Source of the DNA: Clostridium sp.
Lineage (GTDB): Bacteria; Bacillota; Clostridia; Peptostreptococcales; Peptostreptococcaceae
NCBI GenBank assembly: GCA_022782605.1
Contig: JALFMW010000225.1
Coordinates: forward strand, 1-24,441
DNA length: 24,441 nt
Direction: 5' to 3'
Shown: positions 4,325 through 5,756 of the stretch, in pieces
Layout: every line of letters starts with the position of its first letter
Numbering within the stretch: the first letter of the stretch is position 1
Program-made: the position numbers and the translations under genes
The notes under the pieces: generated by a model
Told to the model about the DNA's origin: nothing
The model's input: only the letters and a program-made list of their open reading frames with translations
The model's database searches: none

Positions 4325-5089
4325 ATGAGAGATATTCAAAAAGCAATAGAAGAACATAAGAAAAAAGTTTTAGAATATTATTCAGAAGAACAAATATTAG
4401 GTATTTTTGTATATGGATCTCAAAATTATAATTTAGCAACAGATAAATCTGACGTTGACACAAAAGCTATTATAATTCCTTCTCTTGAAAATTTAGCGAT
4501 CGATCCAATTAAAACTAAAGAAATTCAAATAAATAAAGAAGAACATTGTGAAATTATGTCTATAATGCATTTAATTGATAATTTTAAAAAACAAAATATC
4601 AATTTTATAGAGATATTATATACTGAATATTTTTGGATAAATCCTTGCTACGAAAAATTATGGAATTATTATTTTATTTCATTTAGAGATTTAATAAGTC
4701 ATTATGATATTAATAAAGCAGTAATTTCTACGAGTAGGCAAGCTATTCGTACTTTAAAACAAAATCCTTTAAATGGCAAAAAGGTTGGAAATGGAAAAAG
4801 ATTACTTTATTTTTTAAATAGCTATCTAGCGGGGAAAAATTACAAAGACTGTATTTTTATTACAGGAGAATTACAAAAAGAGATTTTAAATATAAAATAT
4901 ATGGAACTACAATCAGATAAACAAGCTTTAGATTTGATTAATGGTTTTACCTTAATAGAAGGAATGCATAGAAATACAAAGCTTGAAACTTCTAAATATT
5001 CAATAGATTTAATTATGAATAAAGGCATTATGTGTCTGATTAGGAGGTATGAGCATGATTATGGAAAGACAAGAGCAAAAATGTTATAA
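4325..5089 (+). CDS. Pol-beta superfamily nucleotidyltransferase, RlaP/YcgL-like (PF10127-type), catalytic motifs intact
   Basis: GIFVYGSQNYNLATDKSDVDTKAII carries the GS...DxD NTase motif. Downstream helical region ILYTEYFWINPCYEKL as in the YcgL family. Confidence 0.6.
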   Translation: MRDIQKAIEEHKKKVLEYYSEEQILGIFVYGSQNYNLATDKSDVDTKAIIIPSLENLAIDPIKTKEIQINKEEHCEIMSIMHLIDNFKKQNINFIEILYTEYFWINPCYEKLWNYYFISFRDLISHYDINKAVISTSRQAIRTLKQNPLNGKKVGNGKRLLYFLNSYLAGKNYKDCIFITGELQKEILNIKYMELQSDKQALDLINGFTLIEGMHRNTKLETSKYSIDLIMNKGIMCLIRRYEHDYGKTRAKML

Positions 5090-5756
5090 TTATCTAAATG
5101 AAAATTATATAAATATACAAAAAGAATATGGTGAAGAACATATTTTTGGTATTTTTTATTATAATAAAAAATTTGTTGCATTAATTCTTCCTACTTTTGA
5201 AGATGTATGTATTAATGCGGAAATGGTAAACAATAAATCAAAATGTAGAGAAGCAGAATTAGATATTTTTGATATAAGATATTTATGTAATCCTAAAAAG
5301 TATGGGTATGGAGATTTATATAATATTTTGTTTACTCAATATTATATTATTAATCCTAAATATGAATATTTATATCAAAAATTATATAAAGAAAATAAGG
5401 AACAAATTAAGAAAGGTATCAAAATGGAAGAGCCGTCTCAAGAAATAAAAGATGGTTTAACTAAAATGTTACGAACTTGTTTTAATGATAATAGTTCTGT
5501 AGTAAAATTTATTAAACAATTAACAGATATCGAAAAAACTGCAATAGAACAAATTATTGCGGCGGTCGGTAATGAGGGGACTTTTAGTCAGGCTAAGGTA
5601 GCCTCTGCCGCAGGTATATCGCGTGCCGCAATGACAAATCTAATTATGAAAATGCAATTAGCAGGAGTTGCTGAAATAAAATATTTTGGAAATAAAGGTA
5701 CTTATTTTAAAATAATAGATAATACCTTATTTGATATAAGAGGAAAAACTTATTAA
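5055..5756 (+). CDS. Degenerate paralog of the preceding nucleotidyltransferase (GS and DxD lost), fused to a C-terminal helix-turn-helix domain
   Basis: GIFYYNKKFVALILPTFED and ILFTQYYIINPKYEYL parallel the upstream protein but lack the catalytic residues. C-terminus TFSQAKVASAAGISRAAMTNLIMKMQLAGV is HTH-like. Overlaps the upstream gene by about 35 nt; the ATG at 5055 has SD AGGAGG. Confidence 0.5.
   Translation: MIMERQEQKCYNYLNENYINIQKEYGEEHIFGIFYYNKKFVALILPTFEDVCINAEMVNNKSKCREAELDIFDIRYLCNPKKYGYGDLYNILFTQYYIINPKYEYLYQKLYKENKEQIKKGIKMEEPSQEIKDGLTKMLRTCFNDNSSVVKFIKQLTDIEKTAIEQIIAAVGNEGTFSQAKVASAAGISRAAMTNLIMKMQLAGVAEIKYFGNKGTYFKIIDNTLFDIRGKTY

Follow-up and report, generated by a model that had tools for sequence, protein, structure and literature searches.

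An RlaP-family nucleotidyltransferase encoded next to a catalytically dead RlaP core with a CodY-type winged helix in a phage RNA-repair island

RlaP enzymes are polymerase-beta (Pol-beta) nucleotidyltransferases (NTases) whose biochemistry has only recently been characterised. Those studied, Pseudomonas enzymes only, extend the 3'-OH end of broken RNA by one or two nucleoside monophosphates (NMPs) before it is ligated, and RlaPs have been proposed to replace, ahead of ligation, nucleotides taken off by 'smart' ribotoxins (PMC12776372); a survey of jumbo phages makes the same prediction (PMC7824862). In the crystal structure of PfRlaP, an N-terminal NTase domain and a C-terminal helical domain form a cleft (PMC12776372). 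The second relevant system is CodY, a global repressor of Firmicutes that senses GTP and branched-chain amino acids. Here, we describe two adjacent genes, A and B, on a clostridial contig (JALFMW010000225.1, assembly GCA_022782605.1), of which the whole stretch of 24,441 nucleotides (nt), hereafter the window, was analysed. Gene A encodes an RlaP-type NTase with intact motifs. Gene B, which overlaps the 3' end of A, encodes a catalytically dead, truncated RlaP core followed by a linker helix and a CodY-type winged helix-turn-helix (wHTH). Both genes lie in a phage RNA-repair island, and to our knowledge nothing is known about how such islands are controlled.

Gene A is a divergent member of the RlaP family, a Pol-beta NTase with predicted activity on RNA 3' ends. 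The Pol-beta motif hG[GS]x9-13Dh[DE]h occurs with both aspartates in YGSQNYNLATDKSDVD (residues 30-45), as an initial annotation of this DNA had noted for GS...DxD; G31, S32, D43 and D45 were invariant in an alignment of 41 A-family members and ~100% conserved in 91 clusters of stand-alone A proteins plus 118 clusters of active fusion proteins (see below). Across these clusters, 94-100% keep G31, S32, N34, Y35, S42, D43, D45, K89, Q90, N91, N93, K152, N156, and R159, and 90-100% keep E73, H74, and Q139. E73 and E76 (EHCE), candidates for the third catalytic carboxylate, were near-invariant and located at or on model strand 74-79.

Profile searches supported the NTase assignment that the initial annotation had proposed to check, with one shortfall. 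A matched phrog_388 'nucleotidyltransferase' at 7.6e-17 and the generic NTP_transf_2 and Polbeta models weakly (E <= 0.1), and it had no match to PF10127 (RlaP, gathering score 23 bits) at E <= 0.1. Two orthologs exceeded that gathering score (L012-A, 26.4 bits; P0115, 25.2 bits), and PF10127 matched 20 of the 41 A-family members at E<0.01; T4 NrdC.11, a recognised RlaP, scored 46.6 bits. Alignment of the A-family profile with T4 NrdC.11 (hhalign) gave 90.7%, over the motif region only, with the signature YGS..YG..T..SDVD.K.I.P, which A shares, as YGS..YG..t..SDvD.K.i.P, with RlaPs of P. fluorescens and P. aeruginosa as well. The A-family profile had no significant match among PDB sequences, in a copy evidently without PfRlaP. 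In total, 671 homologs of A were found in metagenomes at E <= 1e-3.

The AlphaFold model of A (predicted local distance difference test score 93.5) consists of an alpha/beta core (residues 4-125) and an all-helical domain (residues 129-253), an architecture like that of PfRlaP (PMC12776372). The best Foldseek matches of this model were two-domain NTases such as kanamycin NTase, HalB, ANT(9), LinB, and Cid1; its structural neighbours are NTases of the ANT/KNTase/HalB type. No family of CCA-adding enzymes or poly(A) polymerase head domains matched A at E <= 0.1, and with characterised RlaPs adding one or two NMPs the earlier description 'CCA-repair-like' was imprecise. By analogy with the characterised RlaPs, A would extend cleaved RNA at its 3'-OH by one or two nucleotides, after which a ligase could restore a functional tRNA. 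The RNA-repair context proposed for A was found: RNA ligase, kinase, and metallophosphatase genes accompany it in the window, and in relatives they lie within 1-3 kb. This linkage to ligase, kinase, and phosphatase, and its occurrence in phages, A likewise shares with RlaP. The nearest GenBank phage to A was Phage Phass-1 (L018, OQ749652.1) from gut, at 25-32% identity; this phage, which has many tRNA genes, is assigned to the 'Caudoviricetes code 15 clade' (amber recoded), and the open reading frames (ORFs) of the window read normally in table 11.

The N-terminal part of B is homologous to the NTase core of A, with similarity far exceeding chance. Pairwise BLASTP aligned A19-113 with B27-109 (E 4e-9, 32% identity), and the single gap of 12 residues in this alignment removes GSQNYNLATDKSDVD, the catalytic loop, from B. 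Alignment of the A-family profile with the B N-terminal profile (hhalign; B residues 1-125, with the sole sequence bearing a helix-turn-helix [HTH] taken out of the A alignment) gave a probability of 99.5% and an E value of 2.9e-22 for A3-126 = B9-120. The order of secondary structure elements in the AlphaFold models was the same in A and B, except that the GS helix is missing from B. The GS...DxD motif was absent from all 29 aligned B-family sequences (window B and 28 homologs), and in the residue table nothing in B corresponded to the EHCE strand, to KQNxNF, or to any of the helical domain. Core-like segments still conserved in the B N-domain are FGIF, IPTFE..C, DIR, and LYT.Y.INP.YE. Two fold searches with B were dominated by the winged helix and gave no direct NTase fold match for the N-domain. 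Both ORFs and the peptides on which the initial annotation had based its pairing are present (ILYTEYFWINPCYEKL in A versus ILFTQYYIINPKYEYL in B, and the C-terminal AKVASAAGISRAAMTNLIMKMQ in B). B aligns with A over the core, the helical domain being absent, and the loss of the catalytic motifs and the C-terminal HTH were both borne out. Compared with RlaP, B residues 1-120 come from the same core. Catalytic loop, cleft residues, and helical domain are gone from B, which bears a wHTH instead.

The C-terminal part of B is of the CodY type. Pfam HTH_CodY (PF08222) matched B with 33.3 bits (gathering score 27), and the NCBIfam CodY models matched at 2.9e-12 in the C-terminal 77 residues only (153-229; 46 and 42 bits versus cut-offs of 255 and 267). 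CodY was the top structural match of B, and RbkR chains were among the weaker Foldseek matches. The CodY homology spans residues ~143-229, that is, the wHTH and ~25 linker residues at the end of the linker helix, with a conserved wing LG.KGT[YF] and a conserved helix start GI[ST]R. B lacks the GAF domain of CodY and has the dead NTase core instead. Within the B family, mean pairwise identity was 72% in the wHTH versus 45% in the N-domain, and invariant columns numbered 21 versus 6; the pI of the wHTH was 9.5. The wHTH is thus the most constrained part of B, the part that selection preserves. The loss of the catalytic loop, the active-site residues, and a whole domain might suggest that B is merely what is left of a duplicated fusion gene, in decay and without function. 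This is highly improbable: the B ORF is intact with a strong Shine-Dalgarno (SD) sequence, short forms make up ~75 clusters, and the family is monophyletic, with 27 invariant columns among members as little as 40% identical, its N-domain being still conserved.

B belongs to a large family in which the RlaP core and the CodY-type wHTH occur in a single chain. P0128 (341 aa), a match of the A family, bears PF08222. A search with P0128 retrieved >110 clusters of proteins of 330-360 aa that consist of the RlaP core (YGSQNYG...SDVDTK), the helical domain, and the CodY-type wHTH. Such fusions are common in related metagenomic phages of ~130 kb. With the B profile as query, an exhaustive hidden Markov model (HMM) search yielded 1112 proteins at E <= 1e-3, and the best 150 of these were mostly long fusions matched in two stretches or short B-like proteins matched in one. 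Most of the newly found long fusions were catalytically degenerate, for example YGKINYGFAKTIDDLKT. We distinguished four classes: 91 clusters of stand-alone A, 118 of active fusions, 75 of dead long fusions, and 75 of short dead forms, counts that are approximate owing to mixed 90% and 50% clustering. The dead long forms lack S32, S42, D45, K89-N93, Q139, K152, and N156, and the short forms lack the helical domain as well. In two otherwise active-looking fusions of 341-352 aa (P0215 and P0247), SD[IV]N replaces SDVD, the second aspartate being changed to asparagine; these may mark an early stage on the way to the dead forms. No mention of the fusion was found in the literature searched, which included PMC12776372 and PMC7824862 and did not include the 2016 paper naming RlaP. 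Among GenBank phage records, nothing matched the wHTH part, P0128 matched through its NTase part only, and the window had no near DNA match. The only tblastn match of B in GenBank phages, OR844988, was rejected as a phage homolog. This UNVERIFIED record (L017, OR844988.1 276113-284364, 'Staphylococcus phage SA 1306 Kay', 386 kb, UNVERIFIED_ORG) holds the genuine S. aureus hslU-codY-rpsB genes, and at least part of it is therefore host DNA.

We built a neighbour-joining tree of the core from ~139 columns, in which the B branch is long. B was monophyletic and its nearest non-B sequences were mostly fusions, and 126 of the 128 stand-alone A sequences grouped in a single clade that lies within a grade of fusions. 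This topology suggests, short of proof, that enzymes without the HTH and HTH proteins without the enzyme both descend from a fused ancestor. B is a short, monophyletic branch of a large and apparently undescribed family of RlaP fused to a CodY-type wHTH. The view of B as a simple tandem duplicate of A does not agree with these data, since its core is closest to the single-chain fusions and the helical domain is absent.

The reading frames of A and B overlap by 35-41 nt, as first described, depending on which of two ATG codons starts B (Table 1). The ATG at 5055 is the likelier start because AGGAGG lies 7 nt upstream and P0001, a metagenomic homolog 98% identical to B, begins at the matching position. 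The B frame is +1 relative to A. A programmed frameshift fusing A to B was ruled out by this frame, by B's own SD and ATG, and by its own copy of the core. In relatives, the overlap is 8 nt (L001 and L003) or 17 nt (L012). A terminator and an extended -10 promoter precede A, and a second terminator follows the small gene C downstream of B, so A-B-C was regarded as one short operon. Terminator-like sites were more frequent than expected between 3000 and 7000 (6 vs 0.9), as was the pattern T[GT]WTATAATA in the window (14 vs 3.2). The three genes would form a terminator-bounded early operon inside the phage RNA-repair island.

Gene C is a conserved small ORF without a match in Pfam, PHROGs, PADLOC, or PDB. 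It follows B in 8 of 9 lineages, with a 1-nt gap or a 4-nt overlap where coordinates were checked (L001, L010, L011, and L012). The linkage of C to B is tighter than that of A, and C may be B's real partner.

To compare genomic contexts, we used nine lineages of B; pattern scans of IMG/VR, GTDB genomes, and JGI metagenomes gave one locus each. The loci are AT-rich metagenomic contigs, up to ~120-150 kb where near-complete, from samples including pig gut. They share a slot just upstream of small ORFs and the cluster of RNA ligase, kinase, and phosphatase, whose occupants differ: a lone active fusion, a lone dead long fusion, A together with B, or B by itself (Table 1). The tandem arrangement, which the initial annotation had suggested looking for in related phages, was present in L001-L004 and L012. 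The slot is immediately preceded by a Metallophos gene in the window, L001-L006, L008, and L012, and not in L007 and L009-L011. The gene upstream of the L008 fusion was considered as an A homolog and rejected, its translation being a metallophosphatase. By tblastn and HMM scans of the fetched flanks (~2-8 kb on each side, contig ends permitting, rather than whole genomes), no A was found near B in 5 of the 9 lineages. Conversely, no HTH gene was found within 5 kb of the stand-alone A genes of L015 and L016.

These contexts bear on the suggestion, made in the initial annotation, that B serves A as a non-catalytic subunit for targeting or regulation. Here, the dead core would pair with A, the wHTH would bind the substrate (e.g. 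broken tRNA), and translational coupling would set the ratio, giving a two-chain version of the fusion. We consider this possibility less likely than not. Winged helices can bind RNA 3' ends, as in the La motif. By Rosetta-stone logic, moreover, the active RlaP core is fused to the same wHTH in >110 clusters; A and B follow each other with overlapping frames in four lineages, and both lie within the RNA-repair island. However, B without nearby A and A without an HTH gene weaken a fixed stoichiometry or an obligate subunit, and in L009 a dead long fusion stands directly beside the ligase with no active RlaP nearby. The overlap also varies in length (8, 17, or 35 nt), B has its own strong SD, and B is linked more tightly to C than to A. 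In addition, double-stranded DNA is the only known target of the homologous domain in CodY (PMC10415144). The prediction that B binds DNA or RNA was retained in a narrower form: the CodY-type wHTH points first to DNA and regulation, and RNA targeting is less favoured, RNA binding being possible.

We therefore consider another reading, to which we give about an even chance: B regulates phage early and RNA-repair genes by binding DNA in the style of CodY, probably as a dimer, the NTase remnant serves as a scaffold, and A is independent. B sits in the slot where related phages carry the fusion of RlaP, helical domain, and wHTH. Its lineage would have lost the catalytic loop, other active-site residues, and the helical domain, with the linker helix and winged helix kept under strong selection, and B would no longer make or bind substrates via the ancestral active site. 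The dead NTase core could replace the GAF domain of CodY as a scaffold, either structural or for dimerisation. A and B would thus stem from a bifunctional ancestor that was duplicated and subfunctionalised, with the enzyme passing to A and nucleic-acid binding to B, and A would work without B, not in an obligate heterodimer.

Several points weigh against this reading, among them the long B branch of the tree and the limited flanks given above. CodY-DNA contacts were mapped onto B by hand, from the B/CodY alignment and the contacts in PMC10415144. Those kept are T213 (S189 in B, invariant), T240 (T216, invariant), S180 (T157), G236 (G212, invariant), K238, and G239, whereas S215 (A191), R222 (M198), Y181 (D158), and M237 (N213) are changed. 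Among the kept positions, T213, T240, S180, and the wing residue G236 contact phosphate in CodY. In CodY, Ser215 makes the only base-specific major-groove contact, Arg222 contacts phosphate, and Tyr181 stacks across the dimer (PMC10415144). Since these three residues are replaced, DNA binding in the mode of CodY is not guaranteed for B. A scan of the window for CodY boxes (AATTTTCWGAAAATT, <=3 mismatches) gave 10 sites versus 12.3 expected, showing no enrichment. A search for an operator among the 11-14-mers common to seven B-type loci found only the general, clade-wide promoter TTGATTTTTATAAAAA..TGATATAAT, which cannot be assigned to B because it is also present in L016, without B in the fetched flanks. 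Finally, the fusions of an active enzyme and the wHTH fit equally well with the wHTH being an RNA-substrate-binding module.

The same data bear on whether B mimics CodY, binding host CodY boxes or poisoning host CodY via its linker and recognition helices and thereby rewiring the nutrient regulon of a Firmicute host. The wHTH and the ~25 linker residues are specifically CodY-like, with the wing and helix start conserved, and CodY reads AT-rich DNA chiefly through shape (PMC10415144), so that such an activity is conceivable. We nevertheless judge it quite improbable, because the base-specific and cross-dimer residues differ (S215, Y181, and R222), CodY boxes are not enriched in the window, and the tie of the wHTH to RlaP and RNA-repair genes over hundreds of clusters would be left unexplained.

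As a DNA-binding regulator, B would resemble the known enzyme-derived transcription factors BirA, NrtR, B. subtilis PurR, and archaeal RbkR, which have the same design of an enzyme fold and a winged helix. The active fusions are comparable to BirA and RbkR, and the dead ones to NrtR and PurR. B differs in its superfamily (Pol-beta NTase), and ligand sensing at the ancestral site is unlikely for it. Nevertheless, dead-enzyme sensors with an HTH are a common design (NrtR, B. subtilis PurR), and B could be a damage-sensing switch, a special case of the regulator reading. In this case, the RlaP-derived domain would sense broken RNA 3' ends or nucleoside triphosphates, gate DNA binding by the wHTH, and turn on repair genes upon attack by host ribotoxins. 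RNA-repair islands are the constant setting of the family, whose gene often comes first, ahead of ligase, kinase, and phosphatase. However, the dead forms have lost the carboxylates and nearly all cleft residues (K89-N93, Q139, K152, and N156), and the helical half of the cleft is missing from B. Ligand binding at the ancestral site is therefore disfavoured, at least for B, and a switch of this kind is unlikely. It would be a phage analogue of RtcR, the regulator of rtcBA, which is activated by damaged tRNA fragments in a 2020 study as cited in PMC12776372. RtcR is likewise an HTH regulator encoded with RNA-repair genes, an analogy in function only: with its CARF-AAA+-HTH architecture and sigma-54 dependence, it is unrelated to B in sequence and architecture.

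A wider proposal is that all RlaP-derived proteins with a CodY-type wHTH, whether active, long dead, or short, form a previously unrecognised class of phage transcription factors that arose by exaptation of an RNA-repair enzyme. They would link RNA 3' ends broken by host anticodon nucleases to expression of the RNA-repair and counter-defence island, as functional analogues of RtcR, with sensing or catalysis and DNA binding split between A and B in the lineage of the window. We regard this proposal as doubtful.

The two domains and their RNA-repair context were already known; the family of fusions and dead paralogs is apparently undescribed and widespread. It is a large family found only in metagenomes, includes active RlaP-wHTH fusions, and its nucleic-acid-binding half has persisted beyond the enzyme at least twice, once in the long dead forms and once in the short ones. 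The family may represent a clear natural case of a bifunctional protein that was split and subfunctionalised, and it shows that phages have recruited the CodY DNA-binding domain, regarded as a housekeeping module of Firmicutes. B, gene C, and the promoter with a palindromic spacer described below are candidates through which the regulation of phage RNA repair, or its recruitment of substrates, can be approached.

Table 1. Positions of features in the window and at related loci.
Feature	Position	Strand	Basis or remark
Gene A	4325-5089	+	254 aa ORF
A domains	NTase core ~1-126, helical domain ~129-253 (residues)	+	AlphaFold model
Catalytic signature YGSQNYNLATDKSDVD	4412-4459 (A residues 30-45; G31 S32 ... 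D43 x D45)	+	alignment
Gene B	5055-5756 (233 aa) or 5049-5756 (235 aa)	+	ORF, two possible ATG starts
SD sequence AGGAGG of B	5042-5047	+	within 3' end of A; 7-nt spacer to ATG 5055
A/B overlap	5055-5089	+	35 nt from ATG 5055, 41 nt from ATG 5049; A stop 5087-5089
B N-terminal NTase-core homolog	5055-5414 (residues 1-120)	+	hhalign, residue table, family alignment
B wHTH, CodY type	5505-5744 (residues 151-230)	+	recognition helix GISRAAMTNLIMKMQ, wing FGNKGTY
Gene C	5772-6038	+	88 aa in window, conserved; 86-88 aa across lineages
C homologs	L001 8701-8958, L005 8699-8956, L010 6648-6905, L011 3908-4165, L012 5699-5962, L019 ~5740-5998		
C homolog downstream of active fusion	L006 9527-9742		
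Intrinsic terminator	4239-4273 (hairpin 4239-4263 + T-run)	+	11-bp stem AAGCGAGTTAA/TTAACTCGCTT; ends upstream unit
Extended -10 promoter TGTTATAAT of A-B-C operon	4282-4290	+	sequence pattern; upstream of A
Intrinsic terminator closing A-B-C operon	6023-6062 (also delimited as 6023-6052)	+	terminator scan
Slot filled by active fusion alone	L006, L007, L008		
Slot filled by dead long fusion alone	L009		RNA ligase-kinase-phosphatase genes follow immediately; no active RlaP nearby
Slot filled by A and B	window, L001/2, L003/4, L012		
Slot filled by B alone	L005, L010, L011, L013, L019		
Five tRNA genes (Pro, Trp, Gln, Arg, Cys)	535-1543	+	tRNA-Cys ends 17 nt before start codon of Ro/TROVE-like gene
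Ro/TROVE-like protein with vWA (DUF2828 + DUF7788)	1561-3048	+	phrog_850 'RNA-binding protein' 7.7e-125
Metallophosphatase	3328-4077		domain match
MVP-like protein, 816 aa	6453-8903	+	PF11978 shoulder domain 4.6e-20, faint vault repeat
Thg1-like 3'-5' polymerase	11031-11879	+	
RNA ligase with PHA02142 OB domain	13366-14598	+	
AAA_33/KTI12-like kinase	15541-16041	+	
Metallophos_2 phosphoesterase	16245-16835	+	
PIN-PhoH fusion	18384-19655	+	

The window (24.4 kb) has a G+C content of 22-34% in 1-kb windows, and nearly every gene is on the + strand. The other genes of the RNA-repair island are listed in Table 1. A clade-wide promoter whose spacer and start region are unusually conserved, TTGA-TTTTTATAAAAA-n-TGaTATAAT-ATTTATA, was found in the window at 6385-6431, 13295-13335, 14870-14900, 100-132, 3080-3111, and 6050-6079, and the same motif was present in L001, L003, L006, L008, L010-L012, and L016. 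Its 12-bp palindrome TTTTTATAAAAA (<=1 mismatch) occurred 11 times versus 2.95 expected, and this conserved palindromic spacer could be a candidate binding site for a regulator.

The MVP-like gene is conserved beside RNA-repair genes in relatives (L006 12576-15077, L011 4306-6747, and L015 2087-4558), and a pair of PARG-like (PF10021) and YqeY genes recurs near it (L006 15599-16799 and L015 7625-8903). The RNA ligase genes of L003 (10483-12828) and L004 (10473-12818) encode proteins of 781 aa that contain an intein with a LAGLIDADG endonuclease (PF14890, PF03161).

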